Below, piece after piece: positions 38,856-53,169 of a DNA stretch of 64,000 bases. The first letter of the stretch is position 1, and every line of letters begins with the position of its first letter. The stretch is from NCBI GenBank assembly GCA_963663035.1, contig OY760074.1, positions 1,920,001 to 1,984,000 of the forward strand, given 5' to 3'. The translations under genes and the position numbers were made by a program. Source of the stretch: Acidobacteriota bacterium. GTDB lineage: Bacteria > Acidobacteriota > UBA6911 > RPQK01 > JADFOI01. The notes beneath the pieces are model-generated. The model did not search any database. It was not told the origin of the DNA and was given only the letters and a program-made list of their open reading frames with translations.

Positions 38856-41539
38856 CAACGGCCGCAGCACTTCTTATATTTCTTGCCCGAGCCACAGGGA
38901 CAGGGCTCATTGCGGCCTACCTTGGGGGTGTTCCGAATAACTGGACTCACGGCTGCCGCAGTTTGCCCCCCCCTTGACTGGCGGGGCTGAAAGGCAGGCT
39001 CGGCTGTGTCCTCGGAGCGAGAATAGCTCATGGGCTGTTGCTGGCGGGCTTTCAAGAGATCCTGTTCGTCTTCCTTGGTGATCGGCCGCAGCAAAAAGAG
39101 CATCCGCACGATTTCCTCAGTGGCCCGGTTCCAAAGCTCTTCGAACAACGAAAAGGACTCTCGTTTGTACTCCACCAGCGGATCACGCTGTCCGTAACCC
39201 CGCAAGCCGATTCCTTCCTTGAGATGATCCAGAACAAGGAGATGATCCTTCCACTGCTGATCCATGATCTGCAACATCACCACGCTCTCGTACCATCGCA
39301 TCATCTCCGAACCGATCTGCTCTTCCTTTTCCTGGTACTTCGATTGGATTTGCTTGAGCAGTCGGTCTTCCAGTTCGGGCCGCGACAACTGATCCACATC
39401 TTGAGGGAGATCGATCCCGTAGACCCGCCGCAGGTTCACCTGCATTTTTTCCAGATCCCATTCCTCCGGATCGGTCTCTTTATCGGCATAGATATCCAGA
39501 AACTCGATCAGGATGTCCTCAGCCAGCCCTAAGATGTATTCTTTCCGGTCCTCTCCTTCCAGTATCTCGCGGCGGAATCGGTAGATTTCCGCACGCTGCT
39601 TGTTCATCACATCGTCATACTCCAGGAGATGTTTTCTGATCTCGAAGTTCCTGCCTTCCACCTGCTTTTGGGCTCGTTCGATCTGCCGGGTGATCAGCTT
39701 GGATTCGATGGGGACACCCTCCTCCATTCCCAGCTTGTGCATCAGACCGGAGATATTATCGGAGCCAAAGATGCGCATCAGATCATCCTCAAGGGACAAA
39801 TAAAAGCGACTGGATCCGGGGTCTCCCTGGCGACCGGATCGACCCCGGAGCTGATTGTCTATACGCCGAGACTCATGTCTTTCCGTGCCGATGATATGAC
39901 AGCCACCCAGTTCGACCACCTTATCGTGCTCCTTTTGCCAGGCCGGAAGCAGCTTCTCCAGCTCTTTGCGATACTCCTCTTGAGTCTCCTCGGCCGGACT
40001 CTTTCGAGCCCGCAAATTGAGTCTGGCTTGAAACTCATGGTTTCCACCCAGAATGATGTCGGTACCACGTCCGGCCATATTGGTGGCAATCGTCACCGCA
40101 CCGATCTTACCCGCCTGGGCGACAATTTCGGCTTCCCGCTCATGATATTTGGCATTGAGAACCACATGCTTGATACCGCGGCGCTTGAGCAAGCCCGATA
40201 GTCGCTCAGACTTTTCAATGGAGGTGGTCCCCATCAACACCGGGCGTCCCAGCTCATTCAGTTCCTTGACCTCATCGGCAACAGCTTTGAACTTCTCCCG
40301 CTCTGAGCGGTACACCAAATCAGGAGCTTCGTGCCGGATCAGTTCCTGGTTGGTGGGAATGACAATCACGTCAAGCTTATAGATCTTCTCGAACTCGGTG
40401 GCCTCTGTTTCGGCCGTGCCTGTCATGCCCGCCAGTTTGTCGTACATGCGGAAGTAATTCTGAAAGGTAATGGTGGCCAGGGTCTGGTTCTCGCGTTCAA
40501 TTTTTACACCCTCTTTCGCCTCCAGTGCCTGGTGCAGGCCGTCTGAGTAGCGGCGTCCCGGCATGAGGCGCCCGGTGAATTCGTCAACGATGATCACCTG
40601 ACCGTCCTTGATCATGTAATCCGCGTCTCTCTTGAACAGGGTGTGAGCCTTCAGAGCCTGCTGGATATGATGAACCAGGTCCATATTGCTGGGATCGTAG
40701 AGGTTCTCCAAACCCAGAAACTTCTCCCCTTTTTCAACACCTGATTCTTGAAGCACGACGCTGCGGGCTTTCTCGTCGATCTTGTAGTCCTGTTCACGAA
40801 CCAGCCGCGGGATCAGTTTGTTGATCTTGTAATACTTGTCGGTAGACTCTTCGGAAGGACCGCTGATGATAAGGGGAGTACGGGCTTCATCGACAAGGAT
40901 GGAGTCCACCTCGTCGACTATTGCGTAGTAGTGATTCGGCTGGACGCAATCCTTGAGCGCGTATTTCATGTTATCGCGCAGGTAATCGAAGCCGAACTCG
41001 TTGTTGGTTCCATAGGTGACATCAGACCGGTAAGCTGCCCGGCGTTCCTCTTCAGGCATGTCGTGCTGGATCACTCCTACGCTCAGGCCCAGAAAATCGT
41101 AGAGGGGTTCCATCCAGTCCGCATCGCGCCGCGCCAGATAGTCATTGACCGTGACAACGTGAACACCTTTTCCAGCCAGGGCGTTGACATAGACCGCAAG
41201 AGTGGCCGCCAGAGTCTTCCCTTCTCCGGTCTTCATCTCAGCAATTTTGCCCTGATGAAGCACCTCTCCTCCGATGAGCTGGACATCGAAATGACGCATC
41301 TCAAGGGTACGCCGGCCGGTTTCGCGGACCGCAGCGAAGGCTTCAGGGAGAATTTCCTCAAGCGATTCCCCCTTTTCCAGACGAGATTTAAATTCGGGGG
41401 TCTTCGATTTCAGAGCAGCATCGGAGAGCGGAGAGATTTCCTTCTCCAGCTCGTTGATACTTTCGACGAGCGGCTGAATCCTCTTGAGCTCTCGTTCATT
41501 GTGGCTCCCCACAATCTTTGTCAAAATCGAATTGAACAT
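38855..41539 (-). CDS. secA: Protein translocase subunit SecA
   Basis: [52 protein letters not shown]. Confidence 0.98.
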
Positions 41540-41638
41540 GACTGGTCGATTCTACCATGATCCCACGGCGTACAGGGACGGACACCTAACCCGTGAAATT
41601 CGTGGAAGTTTGTGTCGTTCGTGGGATAGAATCCATAG

Positions 41639-43099
41639 ATGGAGATCTCTGAAGCCCTCACATTTGACGATATCCTGCTGATGCCAGCCAAGAGTAATGT
41701 CTTGCCGGGGGAAGTAGACCTCCAAACCCGCTTCTCTCGCAATATCCCTCTCAATATCCCTCTTGCTTCCGCGGCCATGGACACCGTGACGGAAGCCAGG
41801 TTGGCCATCGCTTTGGCCGGGCAGGGAGGGATCGGGATCGTCCACCGCAATCTGTCCATCGAAGCCCAGGTTGCCGAAGTGGAGAAAGTGAAGCGCTCTG
41901 AATCTGGAATGATCGTGGATCCTGTGACCATGCAACCCAAGGACCGGATCCGGGACGTTTTGGAGGTCATGGATCACCACAAAATCTCCGGTGTTCCCAT
42001 CACCGACACCAAAGGAAAGCTGTTTGGGATTCTCACCAACCGCGATTTGCGCTTCGAGACAGATCTGGATCTTCCGGTTTCGCAACTGATGACAAAAGAC
42101 AATCTGGTCACTGTGCGCCAAGGGATATCCATGGAAAAGGCCAAGAAGAAGCTTCACGAACACCGCATCGAAAAGCTGCTGGTGGTGGACAAGGAAAACC
42201 GACTAAAGGGCCTCATTACCGTCAAAGACATCATGAAGGTGATCACCTACCCCAATGCAGCCAAGGATTCCTATGGCCGCCTGCGGGTGGGAGCGGCCGT
42301 GGGTGCTACCGGAGATTTTTTGGAGCGGGCCATTGAACTGGAGAACGCCAAGGTTGATGTCATCGTGATGGACACGGCTCATGGGCATTCCATGCGCGTC
42401 CTGAAGGCGATCCGACAACTGAAAAAGAAGTTAAAGCGGGTTGATCTTGTGGTCGGTAATATCGCAACCGGGGAGGCGGTCCGCGAACTGGGTGATCTGG
42501 GCGTGGACGGCGTCAAAGTCGGCATGGGACCGGGCAGTATTTGCACCACTCGCGTGGTCACGGGGGCTGGAGTCCCTCAAGTTACGGCTATTATAAATGC
42601 GGCTCGAGTCGCCCGCAAGATGAAGCTTCCCCTCATTGCCGACGGCGGAATCAAGTACTCGGGAGACATCAGCAAGGCCCTGGCCTCGGGTGCCGACTGC
42701 GTGATGGCGGGGAACCTGTTTGCAGGCACCGACGAGTCTCCGGGCGAACTGGTCTTCTATCAGAACCGCAGCTACAAGACTTACCGAGGGATGGGCTCTC
42801 TGGGAGCCATGGGCGAGGGAAGCGCCGATCGATACGGCCAGGAGGATGTGGAGGTGCAGCGCAAATTGGTCCCGGAAGGCATTGAAGGGAGAGTTCCGTA
42901 CAAGGGCAGCACGGAGGATCTGATTCCGGTCCTAATGGGCGGGGTCCGAGCCGGAATGGGGTACTGTGGGGTTAAAAACATTCACGAGTTACGGACCAAA
43001 GTTCGCCTCATTCGCGTTAGCCACCTGGGACTGCGCGAGTCCCACGTTCACGACGTCATCGTGACCAAGGAAGCACCGAATTACCGCCTGGGGGACTAG
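41639..43099 (+). CDS. guaB: IMP dehydrogenase
   Basis: [16 protein letters not shown] pair, [20 protein letters not shown]. Confidence 0.97.
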
Positions 43100-43142
43100 C
43101 CCACATTTCTCACACCAGGTGTTCGTCGCGAAGCGGCGGAAG

Positions 43143-43222
43143 GGCCGGCCTGAGGCCGCTCCCACAGTCCACCGACCGCTAGGACCAGGCCCAGAAGGTG
43201 GGTGCCGCCTCAGTGCGGCGAA
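43143..43222. repeat. Two diverged REP-like palindromes between convergent genes
   Basis: Minus-strand GTGGGAGCGGCCTCAGGCCG (from 43165) and plus-strand GTGGGTGCCGCCTCAGTGCGGCGAA (43198-43222), similar to 20012-20035. Confidence 0.65.
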
Positions 43223-43240
43223 TGGGCGCGAAGCGCCGCC

Positions 43241-44299
43241 TTATCTGGAAGTTGAAACCTGGAGCCTGGAATCCGAAACCCTTGAATCCGCTATCGTTCT
43301 TCCCACTGCTCCGGTAATCACTCGCAGTTCTTCCATCAGCATGTCAAAGTGCTCCAGGTCCAGGGTTTGAGCCCCATCACAGATGGCGTTTTCGGGGTCG
43401 TGGTGGACTTCCAGCAACAGACCATCAGCACCCGCCGCCGCCGCCGCTCGTGCCAGGGGCGGAACCTTGTCCCGAAATCCTATGGCATGGCTGGGGTCTA
43501 CGACAATGGGCAGATGGCTCAATTCATGTATGACCGGGATTGCCGAGATGTCCAGAGTGTTTCTGGTGTGCGTCTCAAAGGTGCGAATCCCTCTCTCACA
43601 AAGGATCACCCGCTGATTCCCTTCGGCCATAATGTATTCAGCCGCCAGGAGCAAATCGGAAATCGTAGCGCTCATCCCGCGCTTGAGGAGGGCCGGTATA
43701 CCACTCTGGCCAATGTCGCGCAGCAGACCGTAATTCTGCATGTTGCGAGCTCCGATCTGAATGATGTCGATGTAATCTCGAGCCAAAGGAAGTTGAGACG
43801 ATTCCATAACTTCCGAAATCACCAGCAGCCCATGTTTGTCGGCGGCCTTGCGAAGGTCCTTCAACCCCTTTTCGCCATGGCCCTGAAAGGAGTAAGGAGA
43901 TGTGCGAGGCTTGAAGGCCCCACCCCGGATCACCTTGGCTCCTGCGGCCTTGATTCTGCCAGCAATGATATCGGACTGCTCGAAATCCTCGATCGTGCAG
44001 GGGCCCGCCATCACCACAACCTCGTTGCCGCCGATTTTCACATCTCCCACCTCGATGATCGACCCCTCCGGGCAAAAAGCTCGTGAAGCCAGCTTATAGG
44101 GCTGGGTGATGGGGTGCACCTCTGCCACGCCATCCACCAGCTCAAAATCACGGATATCAACTACCTGAGAACCTACTGCACCCAGAATAGTATGCTCCAC
44201 ACCCGTGGAACGGTGCACGTCAAATCCCTGGGATACCAGTTTCTCGATCACACCTTCGATCTGGCCTTCCGTGGCACGTTGTTTCATCACAATAACCAT
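43241..44299 (-). CDS. aroF: DAHP synthase type I-beta with N-terminal regulatory domain
   Basis: MVIVMK.. regulatory N-terminus, AGPC, GGAFKPRTSPY, QIGARNMQN, CERGIR, DPSH. Confidence 0.95.
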   Translation of the reverse strand: MVIVMKQRATEGQIEGVIEKLVSQGFDVHRSTGVEHTILGAVGSQVVDIRDFELVDGVAEVHPITQPYKLASRAFCPEGSIIEVGDVKIGGNEVVVMAGPCTIEDFEQSDIIAGRIKAAGAKVIRGGAFKPRTSPYSFQGHGEKGLKDLRKAADKHGLLVISEVMESSQLPLARDYIDIIQIGARNMQNYGLLRDIGQSGIPALLKRGMSATISDLLLAAEYIMAEGNQRVILCERGIRTFETHTRNTLDISAIPVIHELSHLPIVVDPSHAIGFRDKVPPLARAAAAAGADGLLLEVHHDPENAICDGAQTLDLEHFDMLMEELRVITGAVGRTIADSRVSDSRLQVSTSR

Positions 44300-44305
44300 G
44301 GTTTG

Positions 44306-44635
44306 TTACTCCTTTTCTAGCTTCCTTGCACCTTTGTGCTCTTGTGTCTCGTGCGCATTCTTGAGAGCTCCTGACTCCCGCTCCGCCCGTCTGGACTCAT
44401 CGATAATTCTCTCAAATAGACGCTTGACAGCCTCCTTTGTGAGCGGTCCATGGGCCTCCTTCCGGACATTGCCAATGACGTCTTCTTCGCGTCTCGGGTC
44501 ATAAATCTCTATTTTCAGCTTGTCTTTCAGCTTTCCGATCTCAATGGCGCATTCACCGCGTTGATTGAGGAGCTTCACCAGCTTCAAATCGATTTCATCA
44601 ATCTTCCTGCGCCACTTCTCAATATCGTCCATCAC
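44306..44635 (-). CDS. Chorismate mutase (AroQ type)
   Basis: WR..IDEID..LV.LLNQR, IG.LK, YDPRREE. Confidence 0.92.
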   Translation of the reverse strand: MMDDIEKWRRKIDEIDLKLVKLLNQRGECAIEIGKLKDKLKIEIYDPRREEDVIGNVRKEAHGPLTKEAVKRLFERIIDESRRAERESGALKNAHETQEHKGARKLEKE

Positions 44636-44662
44636 TGAAATCCGTGTGATCCATACGTTCCC

Positions 44663-44701
44663 AAAAAAAAGGGCCGTGAGTAGCGTCCCTACCCACGGCC
44701 C
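44663..44701 (-). terminator. Intrinsic terminator of the internal attenuator
   Basis: Minus strand GGGCCGTGGGTAG-GGACG-CTACTCACGGCCC followed by T8. Confidence 0.9.
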
Positions 44702-44727
44702 TAGTCAGTCTCCCTTGTGACTTTTAC

Positions 44728-44796
44728 TTATACCGGTGGGCAGAAATTCTCCATGTGCCACCAATAAAAAAAATAAAAGTTACAAGCTAAAGTCAT
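44728..44796 (-). CDS. Attenuator leader peptide MTLACNFYFFYWWHMENFCPPV
   Basis: Seven consecutive aromatic codons; AAAGG RBS; terminator 26 nt downstream; precedes chorismate mutase and DAHP synthase. Confidence 0.88.
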   Translation of the reverse strand: MTLACNFYFFYWWHMENFCPPV

Positions 44797-44817
44797 ACGC
44801 GCCTTTAAGTTAGCCGA

Positions 44818-45591
44818 TTATGAGCCTGAAAGCAAGCTTTTTCTGACATATTCTCCCACTTTTTTCACCAGCTCCGCATCCGCTCGGTGCTCTTCAATAA
44901 AGCCCACAATGGCCGAACCCACCACTGCTGCATCTGCGTACTGCCAGACCTTCCTGACATCTTCCTTCGAGGTAATACCAAAGCCCACTGCTATGGGGAG
45001 CCGTGTGTAGCGGCGTAGAAGCTCCACTGTCTTGGGAACCGCAGCTTCTACATCGGTTTGCTTCCCAGTGACGCCCGTACGTGCCACCAGGTAGAGAAAA
45101 CCCTGGCTGACGTCACAAATCTTCTGGAGCCGCTCATCCGAGGAGGTCGGAGCCGCCAGAAAGATCGTATCCAGTTCCTTCAGAGGCTCCATACGAGAGT
45201 ATTCCTCGGGCGTGAGGTCGGTGATCAGCACTCCATCCAGACCAGCCCGGAAACCTTCACGATCCAGGTTCTCCAGTCCATAACTCAAAACCGGATTCAT
45301 GTAGCTCATGAACACCAGTCCGACCTCGGTTCTGGTTCGAATCTCAGCAACCAGATCGATGTAATCAGAAAAAGAGTATCCGTGCTGGAGCGCCTGAAAG
45401 GACGCCTTTTGGATAATGGGGCCGTCGGCAATGGGATCAGAGAAAGGAATGCCGATCTCAACGACATGGGCTCCACTTTCCGCTAGATGCAAGACAATCT
45501 CCCGGGTCGTGTCCAGATCAGGATGACCCGCCGTCACATAGGGAATGAAACACTTCCTATTTTTGGCGAAGATCTTTGATAATCTCGACAT
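44818..45591 (-). CDS. trpA: Tryptophan synthase alpha
   Basis: [32 protein letters not shown]. Confidence 0.96.
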
Positions 45592-46780
45592 CTTTGTCTC
45601 CACGACCGGAAAGGTTGATGATAATCCTCAGATCACGCGGATCTGACTTCGTGAGCTGCGCCAACTCTTCTCTTTTCAGACAGTAGGCCACCGCATGTGC
45701 GGATTCCAGTGCCGGAATGATACCCTCCAGCTCACTGAGAACCCGAAAAGCCTCCAGCGCCTCCTGGTCGTCAACCGAAGTGTACTCAACGCGCCCGATG
45801 TCACGTAGATAGGCATGTTCAGGCCCGATGGAAGGGTAGTCCAGTCCCGCCGAGATGCTGTGAGTGGTCGAAACCTGACCAAGCTCGTCCTGCAGAAGGT
45901 AACTGAGGGTCCCGTGCAAGACCCCCGGCCTGCCACCTTGAAAACGAGCTGCATGCTGGCCCAGCTCTGGCCCTTTTCCACCCGCTTCCACCCCGATCAT
46001 CCTCACCGAGTCATCCTTGAGGAACTCGTAAAAGAGACCGATGGAATTGCTGCCCCCGCCCACGCAGGCGACGAGGAGATCAGGAAGCACGCCCTCCATC
46101 TCCAGAATCTGTTGGCGAGCTTCTCGGCCAATCACGGATTGAAAATCCCGCACTATCGTGGGATAGGGATGACCGCCCAAAACTGAACCCATCAGGTAAT
46201 GAGTATTTTCGACATTGGTCACCCAGTCTCTCATGGCCTCGTTAATGGCGTCCTTGAGAGTACAGGCTCCGGCATCCACCGGAGTCACCTGCGCTCCCAG
46301 GAGCTCCATACGAAAGACATTGAGCGCTTGCCTTCGCATGTCCTCGATGCCCATGTAAACCTCACACTCCAGATCCAGCAGCGCACAGACACTGGCCGTG
46401 GCCACACCATGCTGGCCGGCACCGGTCTCCGCGATAATTCGGCTCTTTCCCATCCGCCGCGCCAGAAGGGCCTGACCCAGAGCGTTGTTGATCTTGTGTG
46501 CACCCGTATGACAGAGGTCTTCTCGCTTCAAATAAACCCTATGGCCCACCCGCTCGGAAAAACGCCGGGCCGGGGTAAGCGGTGTGGGACGCCCTGCAAA
46601 AAGATGCAGAAGTTCCTCAAGCTCTCTCTGGAACTCCTCATCCGCTCCCGCCTCCAGGTAGGCCTGTTCCAACTCTTCCAAAGGAGACATGAGCGTCTCT
46701 GGGACGAAGACTCCCCCGTAACTGCCAAAGTGGCCTCCTGACTTGAACTCTTCCCTTTCAGGCTTCGATTTCTTACCCAT
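45557..46780 (-). CDS. trpB: Tryptophan synthase beta
   Basis: [38 protein letters not shown]. Confidence 0.97.
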
Positions 46781-47420
46781 TGCTTACACTCGCTCCCCTC
46801 ACATTCTCCATAAAACGCCTTAGTTTTCTTACGTCTTTCGTCCCCGGCGCCCCTTCGACTCCTGAACACACGTCCACGCCGGCTGGTTGAAGAAGATCAA
46901 TGGCTTCGGCCACATTCCCCGGCCTCAGGCCCCCCGACAGGATAAAAGGACGATCAATATTACGCAGCTCTTCCCAGTCAGCTGTCTTTCCCCGACCCCA
47001 GGAGGTATCGATGAGAATTTCGTGGTTGGGAAAGCGATGTGCTTCTGAAGGAGAGGTCGCAATATAAAGGGGTTGGTGGGCGGGAGGAAGTTCTGATTCA
47101 GAGTGCAGACCGTGCAGCTGAAAGGAGCCGATCGAAGGCACACGGCTGCTCGCTTTGGCTGTAGCGCTGAGAACGTCCTCACCGCTGACGACCATCACAG
47201 CCACCGTCAGGACATTCTCTGGAATTGCTTGAATGATCTCTTCAACCTCTTCCGGATCAATATAACGCGGGCTTTGGAGGTAAAAATTGAATCCCAGCGC
47301 GTTGGCTCCCAACTCGATAGAACTCAGAGCATCTTTGAGATTCGTGATTCCGCAAACCTTCACCATGAAACAGGGCGAATTCTTGACTCCGAATTGACCC
47401 GACTGCTCCTCAGCTGACAT
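46773..47420 (-). CDS. trpF: Phosphoribosylanthranilate isomerase
   Basis: VKVCGIT, SPRY, QLHG, LSGGL, DVCSGVE. Confidence 0.93.
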
Positions 47421-47423
47421 GGA

Positions 47424-48209
47424 TTATTCCTCGCCTCTCAGTTGCCGCAGGGTCGCTCCTGGGTCGGAAGAGTCCATGAGAACCGAGCCGATCAGAAAAG
47501 CACTGAAGCCGGCATCCTGCAGCTCAACGATCTGTGAGTGTTCCTGGATTCCCGACTCTGAAATCAGGATGTAGCCTTCCTCTCCCTCCATCCGCCTGGC
47601 CATCTCAAAGGAGGTGCCAAGATCGACTTGAAATGTACGCAGGTCGCGATTGTTGATCCCAATGATGCGAGCACCACTGTTGATAGCCTTCTCCAATTCA
47701 AAGGGATCATGAATCTCAACTAAAGCATCGAGGTGAAACTCCTCTCCCAAGCGGATCAGACTCTCAAGTTGCCCCTCGGACAGACAGGAAGCAATCAGTA
47801 GAAAGGCCGAGGCGCCGGCATTCCTGGATTCAACCACTTGATACCGATCCACTATGAAATCCTTTCGCAACAGGGGTGTCTCGGGCATTTCCTGGGCAAT
47901 TTCCTTCAAGAAAGCCAAGTCTCCGGCGAAGTAGTTCTTCTCAGTCAGCACTGACAGGGCCACGGCTCCATTCTCGCGGTAGACTCTGGCCAGATCCCCA
48001 GCGGGCAGCTGGCAGGCAAAGGCGCCGCGGCTGGGACTCTTATATTTGATTTCCGCGATGATGTTGACACCAGCTTCTGTCAGTGCGGACTGAAAGGAGA
48101 CAGATAACTGCTCAGGAATCTGGCCCAGCAGATCCTCCAGGGGAAGCTCTTTTCTGGTCTCGATGAGTTCCCGCTTCTTGGATGCGACGATTTCCTCAAG
48201 TACAGTCAC
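47424..48209 (-). CDS. trpC: Indole-3-glycerol phosphate synthase
   Basis: IAEIK.KSPSRG, SVLTE, LRKDF, GINNRDL, SESGI; GTG start after GGAGA. Confidence 0.95.
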   Translation of the reverse strand: MTVLEEIVASKKRELIETRKELPLEDLLGQIPEQLSVSFQSALTEAGVNIIAEIKYKSPSRGAFACQLPAGDLARVYRENGAVALSVLTEKNYFAGDLAFLKEIAQEMPETPLLRKDFIVDRYQVVESRNAGASAFLLIASCLSEGQLESLIRLGEEFHLDALVEIHDPFELEKAINSGARIIGINNRDLRTFQVDLGTSFEMARRMEGEEGYILISESGIQEHSQIVELQDAGFSAFLIGSVLMDSSDPGATLRQLRGEE

Positions 48210-48219
48210 GTGTTCTCCA

Positions 48220-48254
48220 CTGACAACTAACAACTGACAACTGACAGTTGACAG
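48220..48254. repeat. Heptamer tandem repeat (CTGACAA)n in the trpD-trpC spacer
   Basis: ctgacaa ctaacaa ctgacaa ctgacag ttgacag. Confidence 0.85.
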
Positions 48255-49265
48255 TTAAGTTGTTGAATAGACCTTGATCAGTTGCGATAACTTCTCCAAT
48301 GCGGCACCCGAATCCAGAGACTCCCTGGCCTGCTCGATAGCCTCGTTGAAATCCCCTGCTCCCGCCACATGCAGAGCTGCCGCAGCATTGAGGACCACGA
48401 CGTCGCGGGCCGGACCCTGAATCTCACCTTCCAGGATTCCGCGAATCATGCGGGCATTCTCTTCCGCTGAGCCACCCGAGAGTTGCTCAATGGGACTGAC
48501 CTCAAAGCCAAGATCCTTTGGATCCAGATCGAAACTTTCCACTTTCCCGTCTCTGGCATCGGATATGCGCGCCGGGGCTCCCGTGGAGAGCTCATCCAGA
48601 CCATCGTGACTGTGGACCACCCAGGCTCTTTGGCAGCCCAAACCCAACAGGGCACGAGCCAACTTCTCGGTCAGGTCAGGAGAATAGACACCCACAATTT
48701 GATAGGGAGCCGAAGCCGGATTGGTCAAGGGACCCAACAGATTGAAAATGGTTCGCCGGCCGAGTTCACGCCGAATTTTGGCCACCCTCTTCATGGCGGG
48801 ATGAAAATGTGGAGCAAACATGAAAGCCAGACCAATTTCATTCAAAGAGGGCTCCGCGGCTTCCAAAGACCTTTCAATCCGAACTCCCAAGGCGTCCAGG
48901 ACATCAGCACTGCCGCAGCGGGAGGTGAGGGCCCGATTGCCGTGTTTGGCCACCGGAAGGCCCCCACCGGCGATCACAAAGACCGCAGCAGTCGAGATGT
49001 TAAAAGTATCCGCTCCCCCTCCCGTCCCTGCCGTATCGATCAACCTGGCATGCCTGGCACGCACAGGAATGGCCTGCCGGCGCATCACGCGGGCAAAACC
49101 GACGATCTCTGCAGGGCCCTCTCCTTTGATGGCCAGTGCTGTCAACAGAGCGCCGATGTCCTCATCGGGCGTCTCCTTCGCAAGAATCAGCTCCAGTGAC
49201 TGTTCCGCTTGAGCTTCAGTCAGGTCCTCGCCCTCACTGACGACTCTTGTGAATTCCTTCAGCAT
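48255..49265 (-). CDS. trpD: Anthranilate phosphoribosyltransferase
   Basis: DTAGTGG, FNIST, KHGNR, GSADVL, FNLLGPLTNP, GLDE. Confidence 0.96.
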   Translation of the reverse strand: MLKEFTRVVSEGEDLTEAQAEQSLELILAKETPDEDIGALLTALAIKGEGPAEIVGFARVMRRQAIPVRARHARLIDTAGTGGGADTFNISTAAVFVIAGGGLPVAKHGNRALTSRCGSADVLDALGVRIERSLEAAEPSLNEIGLAFMFAPHFHPAMKRVAKIRRELGRRTIFNLLGPLTNPASAPYQIVGVYSPDLTEKLARALLGLGCQRAWVVHSHDGLDELSTGAPARISDARDGKVESFDLDPKDLGFEVSPIEQLSGGSAEENARMIRGILEGEIQGPARDVVVLNAAAALHVAGAGDFNEAIEQARESLDSGAALEKLSQLIKVYSTT

Positions 49266-49266
49266 G

Positions 49267-49833
49267 TCATTGTTGTAAAAAATTTTCTAAAATCTTCTGT
49301 CCTTCCAGGGTCATGACGGATTCGGGGTGAAATTGGACTCCAAAGACATCATACTCTCGATGACGCAAACCCATGATCAACTCATCCTCGGTCCAGGCGT
49401 TCACAAGCAGACATTCAGGCCAATCTTCTCGCCCTAACATAAGAGAATGGTATCGGGTGGCCTCGAAGGGATTGGGAATATTCGACAGCACCGAATCACT
49501 GTCATGATAGATGAAAGAAGTCTTGCCATGCATCAGCTGTGGGGCCCGGACCACCTTGGCTCCGAAAGCTTCCCCGATGGTTTGGTGACCCAGGCAGACT
49601 CCTAATATGGGGATTCGGGCGGCGAACTCTCGAACCAAAGAGACACAGATTCCCGCATTGCAGGGCAGTCCTGGTCCAGGGGATATCACGATACGGTCTG
49701 GATTCACCTTGCTGATGTCGGCAAGAGTCACTGCGTCGTTCCGGTAAACCTGGATATCACAGCCCAGCATGCCCAGATACTGCACCAGGTTATAGGTAAA
49801 ACTATCGTAGTTATCGATGACTAGAATTTTCAT
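49267..49833 (-). CDS. trpG: Anthranilate synthase component II
   Basis: IDNYDSFTYNL, SPGPG, GVCLGHQ, RYHSL, QFHPES. Confidence 0.95.
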   Translation of the reverse strand: MKILVIDNYDSFTYNLVQYLGMLGCDIQVYRNDAVTLADISKVNPDRIVISPGPGLPCNAGICVSLVREFAARIPILGVCLGHQTIGEAFGAKVVRAPQLMHGKTSFIYHDSDSVLSNIPNPFEATRYHSLMLGREDWPECLLVNAWTEDELIMGLRHREYDVFGVQFHPESVMTLEGQKILENFLQQ

Positions 49834-49852
49834 TCCAAGTTAAGAGCCTTTT

Positions 49853-49884
49853 CTCCTGACTCCTGACTCCTGTCTCCTGACTCC
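49853..49884. repeat. Heptamer tandem repeat (CTCCTGA)n in the trpE-trpG spacer
   Basis: ctcctga ctcctga ctcctgt ctcctga ctcc. Confidence 0.85.
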
Positions 49885-49889
49885 TTTTC

Positions 49890-51266
49890 TCATGCCAGCT
49901 GCTCCCCCAATTCCACGGCTCGAATGAGCGCCTCGGCTTTGTGGAAACACTCCTTGTTTTCCAATTTGGGGACTGAATCGGCAACGATCCCGGCGCCGGC
50001 CTGTATATAAGCCTTTCCCTCCTTTAGAACAACCGTGCGAATGGTAATACAGGTGTCAAGATTCCCTGAGTAATCCAGATACCCGATAGCACCTGCATAA
50101 ATGCCTCTCCGGATGGGCTCAAGCTCCTGGATGATCTCCATGGCTCTCACCTTGGGAGCTCCGCTGACCGTCCCGGCCGGAAAGCACGCCGCCAACGCAT
50201 CGAAGCGATTCAACTCGGGGCGCAAGGAACCTCGCAAGGCACTCACCAGGTGCATCACATGAGAGTACTTTTCCAGGAACATGAGACCCTCTACCTGCAC
50301 GGATCCGTATTCACTGACGCGCCCCAGATCGTTGCGACCGAGATCAACAAGCATGAGATGCTCGGCCCGCTCCTTTTCATCAGAGAGCAACTCCTCTTCA
50401 AGCTCTTTCTCTTCCGTTGCATTGCGTCCGCGCCGGCGGGTACCCGCGATAGGCCGATATTGAAGGTCCCGCCCCTGAACGCGGATCAGCATCTCCGGCG
50501 AAGAGCCGGCAATGCTCTGATTCCCCAACTTGAGAAAGAACATATAGGGGGACGGATTGAGGACACGCAGAGCTCGATAGACGTTGAAGGGATCCCCTTC
50601 AAAATCGGTTTCAAACCGCTGGGAAAGAACCGCCTGAAAGATGTCTCCTGCACGGATGTATTCCTTCACCTTTTCTACGGCGGCATAAAAACCTTCCTGG
50701 GAGAAGCTGGATGTGACTTTCTTGTGTGAAGTTTGGGGATAGTCACCGAGTTCGCGAGACACTAACTGGGTGTCTGTCCCCAATTTCACCTGCCCCCCAA
50801 ACAGCCTTTCTTCCAGCTCTTCCACCTTCCTTTCCCCCTGGTGGGACAGGATGATGATTTGGTGTTTCAGGTGGTCAAAGGCCAGGATTTCGGAGTAAAA
50901 ATCCATCAGCACTGGTCCGGAGCCACTCTCCAATTCAGTGCTGTCGGCCCCCTTCAGTTCCGGTAATCGTTCAAACTCCCGGACCATTTCGTAGCAAAAG
51001 GCACCCACGGCTCCTCCGGTAAAAGGCGGAAGATCCGGGTGGGAGGGGCGTTTTTCCGAAAAATTGCGGCGGAAGTCTGCGAAATTACCTTCGAAGCTTT
51101 GATCAGGATCGACTCCGATGAAGGAATAACGCCCGATCTTCTCTCCGCCTTCGACCGATTCCAGCAGAAAGGCCCGCTCGGAGTCCCTGGCAATTCTCAG
51201 AAAGGCCGAGACCGGGGTGAGCAAGTCTGCCAAAACTGACTTATGATAAATCATCCAACGTTTCAC
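49890..51266 (-). CDS. trpE: Anthranilate synthase component I
   Basis: FLLES, NPSPYM, PIAGTR, KERAEHLMLVDLGRND, PAGTVSGAPK, AGAGIV. Confidence 0.96.
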   Translation of the reverse strand: MKRWMIYHKSVLADLLTPVSAFLRIARDSERAFLLESVEGGEKIGRYSFIGVDPDQSFEGNFADFRRNFSEKRPSHPDLPPFTGGAVGAFCYEMVREFERLPELKGADSTELESGSGPVLMDFYSEILAFDHLKHQIIILSHQGERKVEELEERLFGGQVKLGTDTQLVSRELGDYPQTSHKKVTSSFSQEGFYAAVEKVKEYIRAGDIFQAVLSQRFETDFEGDPFNVYRALRVLNPSPYMFFLKLGNQSIAGSSPEMLIRVQGRDLQYRPIAGTRRRGRNATEEKELEEELLSDEKERAEHLMLVDLGRNDLGRVSEYGSVQVEGLMFLEKYSHVMHLVSALRGSLRPELNRFDALAACFPAGTVSGAPKVRAMEIIQELEPIRRGIYAGAIGYLDYSGNLDTCITIRTVVLKEGKAYIQAGAGIVADSVPKLENKECFHKAEALIRAVELGEQLA

Positions 51267-51277
51267 TCAATTCCGTG

Positions 51278-51492
51278 TAGCCGGGATTATGCATAGGTTT
51301 TCGTGACGAAGTGCCACAGGCGCCGCGATGACAAGGCGGGCGAAGGGGTACCCGCTTGCGGGTCGGGCCCCGCAGGCGTACTCATGCAGTACGCCGAGGA
51401 GCCCAAGGGGTACCCGCTCTGCGGGTCGCACAACGCAGTCAGCGTGGATGATTGCGGCACTGCAGTAGAAAATTTATGCATAATCCCGGCTA
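51278..51492. mobile_element. MITE-like element, long copy (215 bp including flanking TA)
   Basis: Perfect 18-bp inverted termini TAGCCGGGATTATGCATA / TATGCATAATCCCGGCTA; internal direct repeat AAGGGGTACCCGCT and hairpin; homolog at 4112-4263. Confidence 0.88.
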
Positions 51493-51529
51493 AAATAAAA
51501 AGGCCGTGGAGAAATTCTCCACGGCCTTT
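51493..51529 (-). terminator. Attenuator terminator upstream of trpE
   Basis: Minus strand AAAGGCCGTGGAGAATTTCTCCACGGCCTTTTTATTT. Confidence 0.9.
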
Positions 51530-51585
51530 GAGCTTTGATCTCTACTGGGCCCTATGAAGGTTACAGTTCTCCGGCGTCTGGAGTC

Positions 51586-51627
51586 TTAGTTGTACTCGAT
51601 CCGCCAGAAGCAACCGTAAACAATCAT
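51586..51627 (-). CDS. Putative trp leader peptide MIVYGCFWRIEYN
   Basis: GAGGAAGG RBS; lies between a promoter and the terminator hairpin; one Trp codon; alternative pairings visible. Confidence 0.7.
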   Translation of the reverse strand: MIVYGCFWRIEYN

Positions 51628-51646
51628 ATGGCCTTCCTCATCCGCT

Positions 51647-51676
51647 AGCATAGGAGGACCCGGACCTCTAAGTCAA
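51647..51676 (-). promoter_or_regulatory. trp operon promoter
   Basis: Minus strand TTGACT-18 nt-TATGCT. Confidence 0.65.
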
Positions 51677-51717
51677 GAACTTTTTTGCCCTCAGTGGTTC
51701 CAGCGCGCTTCGCGCAC

Positions 51718-51861
51718 GTTCCAGGTTCCAAGTTCCGACTTTGGGATTTGGAATTCTGAATTTGGAATTTGTTTGGAATTTTGAATTTGGGATTTCAGCC
51801 GGTCTGTCGGCTGTTGTCAGCTGTCAGTTGTCAGCTGTCAGTTGTCAGCTGTCAGTTGTCA
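51718..51861. repeat. Compound heptamer arrays: GTTCCAR, GGAATTT/GGATTTG, TGTCAGY
   Basis: gttccag gttccaa; gggattt ggaattc tgaattt ggaattt; (tgtcagc tgtcagt)x3 including the rho stop codon. Confidence 0.85.
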
Positions 51862-53169
51862 GTGGCCCTGTTTTCCGCCGGCTGACATGGAATTGAGGAA
51901 CTCGGCATTGCTCTTGACCTTACTCAGCTTTTCAAGCAGCAATTCCATGGCCTCGGTAGCAGAGAGCGGGTTGAGAACTTTCCGCAGCACCCAGACCCGG
52001 TTTAGCGTCTCTTTATCCAGCAGCAATTCTTCCTTGCGGGTACCGGAACGATTGATATCGATAGCCGGGAAAATCCTCTTGTCCACCAGCTTGCGATCCA
52101 GATGCAACTCCAAGTTACCTGTTCCCTTGAACTCTTCGAAAATAACATCATCCATTCGGCTGCCGGTGTCAATCAGGGCGGTAGCAACAATGGTCAGACT
52201 CCCCCCTTCCTCTATGTTGCGTGCAGCACCGAAGAAGCGCTTGGGACGTTGCAAGGCATTGGAATCCACACCACCCGAGAGCACCTTGCCAGAAGGAGGA
52301 ACGATGGTGTTGTAAGCGCGGGCCAGCCGGGTGATGGAATCGAGCAGAATGACCACGTCTTTCTTGTGCTCGACCAGCCGCTTGGCCTTTTCAAGCACCA
52401 TCTCAGCCACCTGGACGTGCCGGGTAGCCGGCTCGTCAAACGTCGAGCTGATGACCTCACCCCCTACCGATCGCTCCATATCGGTCACCTCTTCGGGGCG
52501 CTCGTCGATGAGCAACACGATGAGCACGCTATCGGGATGGTTGGTGGTGATCGAGTTGGCCAGGCTCTGCAGAATCATGGTTTTTCCTGCCCGGGGCGGC
52601 GAAACGATCAATCCCCGCTGTCCTTTCCCAATCGGGGTCAGGAGATCCATGACTCGCCCTGCCAGGTTGTCCTGAGTGGTCTCCTGAATAAGTTGCTCCT
52701 CGGGATAGAGCGGTGTCAGGTTTTCGAAGAAGGTCCTCTCCCGAGCGACGTCCGCATGCTCGAAGTTAATCGCCTCCACCTTAATCAGGGCAAAGTAGCG
52801 CTCGCCCTCCTTGGGAGGCCTAACCTGTCCCGAAACCGTGTCGCCGGTTCGCAGGTCAAATTTGCGGATTTGAGACGGTGAGACGTAGATGTCATCCGGA
52901 CCAGGGAGGTAATTGTATTCGGGGGCCCTCAGGAAACCGAACCCATCGGGCAGAGTTTCCAGCACGCCTTCTGAAAAAATCAGTCCACTGCGCTCGGTTT
53001 GTGCCTTCAGGATCTGAAAGATCAGTTCCTGCTTACGCATCCCCGTTAACCCAGTAATACTCAAGTCCTTGGCAACTTGAGTCAACGCCTGGATGTTCAA
53101 TTCCTTGAGCTCTTGAATGTTCAAAGAATCCACTTTCTGTTTGACTGAGGGGGAACTTGCTTCACCCAT
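51859..53169 (-). CDS. rho: Transcription termination factor Rho
   Basis: [41 protein letters not shown]. Confidence 0.98.

Follow-up and report, generated by a model that had tools for sequence, protein, structure and literature searches.

Here we describe a short RNA element in the genome of an uncultured Acidobacteriota bacterium, located between trpA and the genes for chorismate mutase and DAHP synthase (aroQ-aroF), which, judged by its sequence features and a folding model, very probably represents a classical ribosome-mediated leader-peptide transcription attenuator gating the passage of RNA polymerase into aroQ-aroF. The element was picked out by a sequence-only reading of a window of 64,000 nucleotides (assembly GCA_963663035.1, contig OY760074.1, positions 1,920,001 to 1,984,000), to which the coordinates below refer; that reading proposed an internal attenuator able to sense all three aromatic amino acids. 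Although bacteria of this phylum abound, few have been cultured and next to nothing is known of how they regulate their genes; the element provides a testable case of RNA-level control of aromatic amino acid synthesis in one acidobacterial order.

According to family scans, the genes of this region all lie on the minus strand, as do all features of the window described here. The upstream cluster is trpEGDCFBA, with trpE starting near 51266 and trpA (44818..45603; TIGR00262, E = 1.5e-71) as its last gene, ending in a TAA stop codon at 44820..44818 and carrying a promoter-like motif in its 3' end. A spacer of 183 nt, occupied by the leader ORF and hairpins, separates trpA from the chorismate mutase start. 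The chorismate mutase gene (aroQ, 44306..44635) is of the AroQ type by family scan and contains the sole CM_2 domain found in the genome (3,594,683 bases, 3.59 Mb, searched). The next gene, aroF (43241..44299), encodes a DAHP synthase of type Ibeta, extended at its N-terminus by about 70 residues; two Ibeta paralogues exist in the genome. The second (G000:C1:338107-338829) lies 12 nt after an OmpA-like gene and has no leader; no type II DAHP synthase was found in this genome. The family scans thus name both enzymes that the sequence-only reading had placed downstream of the element. That reading had, in addition, assigned them jointly to the common pathway, which needs correcting, since chorismate mutase is an enzyme of the Phe/Tyr branch; DAHP synthase serves Trp as well.

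An open reading frame of 22 codons plus stop (44728..44796; ATG at 44796, stop codon 44730..44728) begins 21 nt past the trpA stop, where it had been reported. The intervening 21 nt contain a Shine-Dalgarno-like AAAGG (44802..44806) 5 nt upstream of the ATG, and relatives have a purine-rich block in the same columns. Codons 7-13 (44758..44778) are all aromatic, seven in a row, comprising 3 Phe, 2 Tyr and 2 Trp codons. This run exceeds chance: about 0.05 runs of at least seven aromatic codons are expected from base composition in all six frames of the genome, and one is observed, namely that of the leader, next to 22 runs of five and two of six. Five of these 24 other runs were inspected and none was attenuator-like, the run being either an out-of-frame reading of a gene or part of a signal peptide, with no terminator.

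The RNA downstream of the ATG can be divided into the four segments of a classical attenuator. Segment 1 (44758..44792), delimited by folding and pair counts, overlaps leader codons 2-13 and forms the 5' strand of a long 1:2 hairpin. Segment 2 (44710..44746) takes in the last leader codons and the stop codon; its part 44739..44710 pairs with segment 1, and 44746..44732 pairs with segment 3 in the antiterminator. Segment 3 (44686..44702), the alternative partner of segment 2, consists of the 5' arm of the terminator (44702..44689) and loop bases, and segment 4 (44663..44683) of the 3' arm (44683..44670) and a tract of eight T (44670..44663). The GC-rich terminator with its T8, seen already in the first reading, is a stem of 14 pairs, nine of them G-C, at 44702..44670, with a 5-nt loop. 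In the minimum free energy fold of 44820..44650 the long 1:2 hairpin and the terminator form together (z = -4.2, with none of 200 shuffled sequences as stable), and the 2:3 pairing comprises 10 pairs with one bulge, or 14 pairs in the fold of a truncated transcript. A small conserved hairpin (44706..44723), detected by RNAalifold, sits between segments 2 and 3 in the antiterminator loop, and itself covaries (pair 100/113 is AU in 7, GU in 4 and GC in 2 sequences). No leader (Trp_leader, Phe_leader), T-box or riboswitch family of Rfam 15 matched 40000-53000 up to E = 1, where three chance-level matches were returned.

The 1:2 pairing and the choice between 2:3 and 3:4, both put forward in the sequence-only reading, are present in these folds and are also conserved in an alignment of relatives. 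In a 15-row alignment of such spacers (A1), 95% of terminator cells are paired, with one compensatory UA/CG pair split six against six; the 1:2 helix is paired in 74-80% of cells against 40-53% in slid controls, and the antiterminator in 90% against 29-54%. The 15 rows contain no double-sided change in the antiterminator. With genus g25 and one further row added (22 rows), pairing holds in 169 of 176 cells for the 8-bp core of the antiterminator and in 298 of 308 for the terminator. One 2:3 pair covaries in this larger set, and was seen to do so only once g25 was included (GC 8, GU 9, AU 4, AC 1); covariation support for 2:3 is therefore thin, being limited to a single pair with one A-C exception. 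Nine consecutive columns of the terminator 5' arm are invariant in A1, and such near-invariance fits a strand that has two obligatory pairing partners.

The position of a ribosome on the leader was modelled by folding a transcript ended at segment 3 with 29 nt around the A site masked. At equilibrium the terminator of the full-length transcript wins under all ribosome masks and so cannot discriminate between positions; truncated transcripts were used for this reason, and the argument must be kinetic and co-transcriptional, as it is for classical attenuators. The probability of the 2:3 pairing is 0.00 in the ribosome-free RNA, 0.91 with the A site at any of codons 3-14, 0.05-0.4 at codon 15, and 0.00 from codon 16 through the stop codon. 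Codons 7-13 thus fall entirely within the permissive window of the model, which shuts one to two codons later, and a stall at any of the seven aromatic codons is predicted to yield the antiterminator. For relatives, pairing of the terminator 5' arm was scored against the segment-2 window, since counting its pairing with anything upstream proved too lax. Thirteen of 18 sequences with script-found ORFs switch alike, just past the aromatic run. In the three g6-type sequences the switch is less pronounced (P 0.3-0.4) and comes sooner, inside the run, and two sequences are off-model, L008 with an early stop and P flat at 0.7, and L015 with P flat at 0.1. The ribosome-free truncated RNA already favours 2:3 (P 0.72-0.97) in six of the 18.

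The sequence-only reading had made its case depend on conservation of the aromatic run in orthologous spacers, and the run is conserved. A TrpA search of 41 related genomes gave 30 loci, in 22 of which chorismate mutase follows trpA; 18 of these 22 have an aromatic-rich short ORF in the same place, in most cases with its start exactly 22 nt past the trpA stop. The four without it are G021 (L011), which has the terminator and no ORF, G012 (L013), in which start codon and terminator have decayed, and loci L014 and L021. In total, 26 distinct related loci, which come from five families of a single acidobacterial order, have the leader ORF; its position and reading frame, the terminator and both alternative pairings (1:2 and 2:3) are common to them. 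The ATG column is kept in 14 of 15 rows of A1, with GTG in the remaining one, the stop column is likewise conserved, indels within the ORF are confined to two gaps of 3 nt, and the Phe and Tyr codons vary synonymously. One of the rows (L012), used in both the alignment and the covariance model built from it, belongs to the unpublished genome G017, publication of which needs the permission of its depositors; locus L048 and the trpE leader L068 are from this genome too.

In a search of 137 genomes of the class with the covariance model (R1), 22 genomes gave strong matches, every one of them in the trpA-chorismate mutase spacer; some match at E <= 0.01 was obtained in 40 of the 137, and the weaker loci that were fetched lie mostly upstream of trpE. 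Among 151 genomes sampled phylum-wide, three were matched (G000, G017 and a trpE leader in G030), and the modelled element was not found outside the order. Public species genomes scanned with a chorismate mutase alignment yielded 80 loci, mostly from metagenome-assembled genomes labelled Acidobacteria or Acidobacteriota. In 78 of these 80 trpA precedes chorismate mutase, and only 11 have an aromatic leader, one of them labelled Candidatus Aminicenantes. In records from Terriglobia/Acidoferrum-type bacteria, Blastocatellia, Vicinamibacterales, Ignavibacteriota and Bacteroidota the two genes either adjoin or have repeats between them, and an aromatic leader is missing. Short ORFs initially flagged in six loci (L083, L097, L099, L120, L131 and L144) were left out of the count, as they disappeared in a search of the spacer only and the loci are without the terminator motif. 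The total sample amounts to 333 genomes and 80 chorismate mutase loci, with counts that overstate independence because the sequences are related. By this distribution, the trpA-chorismate mutase gene order is old and widespread; the attenuator module was found in five families of one order only.

The end of trpA appears to hold a promoter. A putative -35 hexamer (P2) lies within the coding end at 44830..44835, reading TTGCTT in the window and TTGATT or TTGATC in relatives, and a putative -10 hexamer, TAACTT (44807..44812), follows 17 nt past it and 10 nt before the leader ATG. TrpA has a conserved C-terminal Leu-Ile, the Leu of which is encoded by TTG wherever chorismate mutase lies downstream (22 of 22 loci), and by CTG or CTC in six of six loci where neither chorismate mutase nor DAHP synthase follows trpA; in this genome TTG accounts for 15.6% of Leu codons. 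The G+C contents of the groups overlap (0.62-0.64 in g6 against 0.59-0.68), so that the choice of TTG is not explained by G+C content. The motif TTG[AC][TC][TC]-N17/18-TAnnnT occurs in 29 of 105 distinct loci, that is, in all 26 leader-bearing loci, in L011 and L013, and in the truncated L053, and in none of the remaining 76. It resembles the site before the trpE leader, TTGACT-N17/18-TATnnT. Its hexamers are weak and were not listed by a promoter scan, which uses the E. coli consensus. The -10 hexamer stands 10 nt from the ATG in the window's family, leaving a 5' UTR of about 3 nt with AAAGG outside the transcript, so that transcripts from P2 would be almost leaderless there and their translation is doubtful; the corresponding distance is 25 nt in g6 and 21 nt in g25. 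In one genome, G017, the trpA stop is displaced and yet the distance from motif to ATG is kept. The conserved bases past the trpA stop were also considered as a sigma-54 promoter, a reading that was dropped when inspection by eye showed the GG/GC spacing not to be conserved. Given a promoter-like motif in 26 of 26 leader loci, the element probably serves, in addition, as 5' leader to an aroQ-aroF unit of its own, transcribed from the putative P2. The earlier description of an internal attenuator thus keeps its second word, an attenuator being very probable, and loses part of its first, as the element is probably not only internal.

A related arrangement is found at the start of the same operon. 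Before trpE lie a promoter-like site (P1, 51676..51647), a leader ORF of 13 codons with one Trp codon (51627..51586) and a strong terminator (51529..51499; z = -8.1 for the fold of the region). R1 gives a match of 26 bits here, and across the order the leader is kept, its Trp codons numbering from one to three. By these sequence features it is a second, Trp-type attenuator of the operon.

These data can be combined into the following scheme. Transcripts would reach the post-trpA element by read-through from trpEGDCFBA and, probably, from the promoter in the last 30 nt of trpA. With charged aromatic tRNAs plentiful, the ribosome would proceed to the leader stop and cover segment 2, allowing 3:4 to form and transcription to end at T8. 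If charged tRNA for Phe, for Tyr or, in this genome, for Trp were scarce, the ribosome would stall in the aromatic run and hold segment 1, leaving segment 2 free to form the 2:3 antiterminator, so that the polymerase would read on into aroQ-aroF. In the absence of a ribosome, the 1:2 hairpin should form and the terminator fire. The sequence features, conservation, pairing potential and model geometry are computed; what we infer from them is the promoter, the read-through and how the element responds to each amino acid. If P2 were absent, a shortage of Phe or Tyr while Trp suffices could increase chorismate mutase only to the extent that some transcription still passes the first attenuator; with P2, the controls at trpE and past trpA would be independent. 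Trp shortage in this genome should open both gates.

Simpler or different explanations of the hairpin were weighed against this scheme. It might be a mere intrinsic terminator of the trp operon, with aroQ-aroF transcribed independently and the ORF untranslated and conserved for RNA structure. The terminator is indeed the best-conserved part of the element and persists without the leader ORF in G021 (L011), and aromatic codons, which are U-rich, pair with an A-rich strand. This explanation is nevertheless very improbable. No promoter-like site is present in the 33 nt that lead from the T tract to the chorismate mutase start: the sole conserved promoter-like motif lies upstream of the leader, and a constitutive terminator would therefore silence the only chorismate mutase found. 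The conserved ATG, frame and stop column, the restriction of indels to 3 nt, the uniqueness of the aromatic run in the genome and the coincidence of the modelled stall window with that run also speak against it. Slimmer still is the chance of an arrest peptide, in which Trp-Trp followed by Pro-Pro-X-stop would respond, as TnaC does, to a free amino acid in the ribosome tunnel, and the ribosome, held on segment 2, would enforce termination. A Pro-Pro-X-stop end does recur in families f1 and f4 and in genus g25, and in the model a ribosome that waits at the stop codon would mask segment 2; yet the CCACC strand of segment 2 is made up of these Pro-Pro codons, whose conservation RNA pairing therefore already explains, g6-type leaders are without Pro-Pro, and no peptide-level conservation separable from that of the RNA was found. 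Control of the terminator by a T-box, a riboswitch or a TRAP-type RNA-binding protein is the least probable of all: no evidence in its favour was found, the Rfam search given above stands against a T-box or riboswitch, and the spacer of only 183 nt is already filled by the ORF and hairpins.

The preferred reading, a ribosome-mediated attenuator, leaves room for different sets of inputs. Phe and Tyr codons cluster in all 26 leaders. Leaders with two Trp codons are those of the window's genus, genus g3, G017, G024 and one g25 genome; most of g25 and one g4 genome have one, and g6, the other g4 genomes and g2 have none. The position of the Trp codons nevertheless stays G-rich, because the strand pairs with CCACC of segment 2, and in the window both TGG codons form the core of segment 1. 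The proposed sensing of all three aromatic amino acids is accordingly borne out family-wide in its codons for Phe and Tyr, and not in those for Trp, which are missing or single in g4, g6 and part of g25. The Phe and Tyr codons are the conserved core of the leader, and the Trp input is a putative, lineage-specific feature that may be partly structural.

Pushed further, the same observations would make Phe and Tyr the only real inputs, with TGGTGG present for the pairing of segment 1 with CCACC and Trp limitation physiologically unsensed, a possibility that we regard as unlikely and still worth keeping in mind. Against it, the two adjacent Trp codons lie at the 3' edge of the modelled stall window, with P(2:3) = 0.91, two Trp codons suffice in E. 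coli trpL, and DAHP synthase is needed for Trp also. In its favour are the scarcity of Trp codons in g6, g4, g2 and g25, the fact that G-richness is what is kept at their position, the service of chorismate mutase to Phe and Tyr rather than Trp, and the separate Trp-type leader ahead of trpE. To these may be added the aroR leader of Corynebacterium glutamicum, in which codon content was no predictor of the response, Phe limitation causing derepression and Tyr availability having no effect, as outlined in PMC11802643.

A bolder reading, which we offer tentatively and at somewhat less than an even chance, is that one RNA scaffold occurs twice in the cluster, as a Trp-type copy before trpE and as a Phe/Tyr copy past trpA which gained two Trp codons in this lineage and became a three-input OR gate with a triple role. 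If true, this second copy would end the trp operon, gate read-through into aroQ-aroF and serve as the 5' leader for the promoter inside trpA; the entry and branch enzymes would be uncoupled from Trp-only control, and, by codon swaps within a fixed structure, each lineage would adjust which amino acids it senses.

The element opens no long-standing question, and its interest lies elsewhere. For genome annotation it offers a small ORF so far overlooked, what may be a new RNA family, with no match in Rfam, and a candidate promoter within a coding region. Leaders with Phe and Tyr codons only, with one Trp codon and with two, set in a near-invariant scaffold, make up a natural series in which the evolution of an attenuator's input set may be followed. 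A possible use is as a compact biosensor part answering to any of three aromatic amino acids.

The mechanism is a textbook one, and the local peculiarities are the position past trpA, the candidate promoter in the coding end of trpA and the variable Trp input. Leaders sensing several amino acids are textbook matter as well, those of ilv and thr being multivalent, and a Phe-Tyr-Phe leader ahead of DAHP synthase is known from C. glutamicum. No description of such an element in Acidobacteria was found in the literature, where the subscription papers Neshat 2014, Vitreschak 2004 and Panina 2001 and 2003 may hold relevant predictions. Attenuators ahead of aromatic supraoperons have been widely predicted, to judge from PMC1173090.

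With the enterobacterial leader-peptide attenuators, for which PMC11802643 lists trpL, pheL-pheA and pheM-pheST, the element shares the 1:2 / 2:3 / 3:4 logic, regulatory codons in segment 1, an intrinsic terminator with a U tract, and a stop codon placed so that the terminating ribosome covers segment 2. It differs from trpL and pheL in having no match to Rfam Trp_leader or Phe_leader and three aromatic amino acids rather than one as candidate inputs, and from the enterobacterial leaders generally in lying between genes of one cluster, with its candidate promoter inside a coding region. In position it resembles the trp attenuator of Bacillus subtilis, which receives read-through transcripts as well as transcripts from a promoter of its own. 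Both attenuators stand within a joint aromatic and tryptophan cluster and would be reached by both kinds of transcript. The B. subtilis aro-trp supraoperon, as its organisation is presented in PMC1173090, carries a TRAP-controlled trp attenuator in mid-cluster; there, aro genes precede trp and the sensor is an RNA-binding protein, whereas here trp precedes aroQ-aroF and the sensor would be the ribosome.

The closest described case is aroR-aroF of C. glutamicum, in which a leader with Phe-Tyr-Phe precedes the aroF operon for DAHP synthase (Neshat et al. 2014, as cited in PMC11802643 and PMC7356990). In so far as these accounts describe it, the likeness consists in mixed aromatic codons ahead of a DAHP synthase operon, in ribosome stalling that raises expression, and in a separate Trp-type trpL for the trp operon. 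C. glutamicum belongs to another phylum, and the likeness is one of functional analogy; the element described here has a longer run, of seven aromatic codons, that includes two for Trp, lies directly past trpA, where it would also end the trp operon, and would place chorismate mutase, together with DAHP synthase, under its control.

A second attenuator lies on the minus strand before trpE (window 51499-51676) and comprises a promoter-like site (TTGACT-N18-TATGCT), a leader ORF, a hairpin and a terminator. The leader ORF (51627..51586, minus strand) has 13 codons, one of them for Trp, and its start codon is contained in the long hairpin; the terminator is a 14-bp structure, and the fold has a z-score of -8.1. 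The element is kept across the order, where its Trp codons number from one to three and adjoin an invariant TGGCG, and it is weakly matched (26 bits) by R1, the covariance model built on the post-trpA element. An antiterminator was sought in the trpE leader and no convincing one could be drawn. Between its terminator and trpE lies a 215-bp MITE (window 51278-51492) with 25-nt terminal inverted repeats, of which the genome contains approximately 40 full-length copies at 82-96% identity. Elements that share its ends are also present between the post-trpA terminator and the chorismate mutase gene at locus L009, and in part at L010.

Elsewhere in the genome, outside the window, a second DAHP synthase type Ibeta paralogue of 346 aa (G000:C1:338107-338829) has an OmpA-like lipoprotein gene 12 nt upstream and no leader. 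The third DAHP_synth_1 match in the genome is a KDO8P synthase, adjoining pyrG and kdsD.

Two loci carry decayed versions of the post-trpA module. The first, L011 (G021), retains the promoter-like motif and the terminator without a leader ORF, and its DAHP synthase is matched as several shifted pieces. The second, L013 (G012), retains the promoter-like motif, loses its start codon after three codons and no longer has a terminator. In the Terriglobia and Acidoferrum-type records (L081-L146), the leader ORF is absent from the trpA-chorismate mutase spacers, which are short and contain repeated GC-rich elements; TrpA carries a long C-terminal extension in these records.

Weak R1 matches were also obtained in other orders of the class, at L057 (G050) and L059 (G049), where aromatic-rich short ORFs with mixed Phe, Tyr and Trp codons are accompanied by a promoter-like site and a similar terminator. 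One of the pair precedes a PHP-domain gene, after which comes a TrpE-like gene, and the other precedes hisF-hisIE, which is an unexpected target for aromatic codons.
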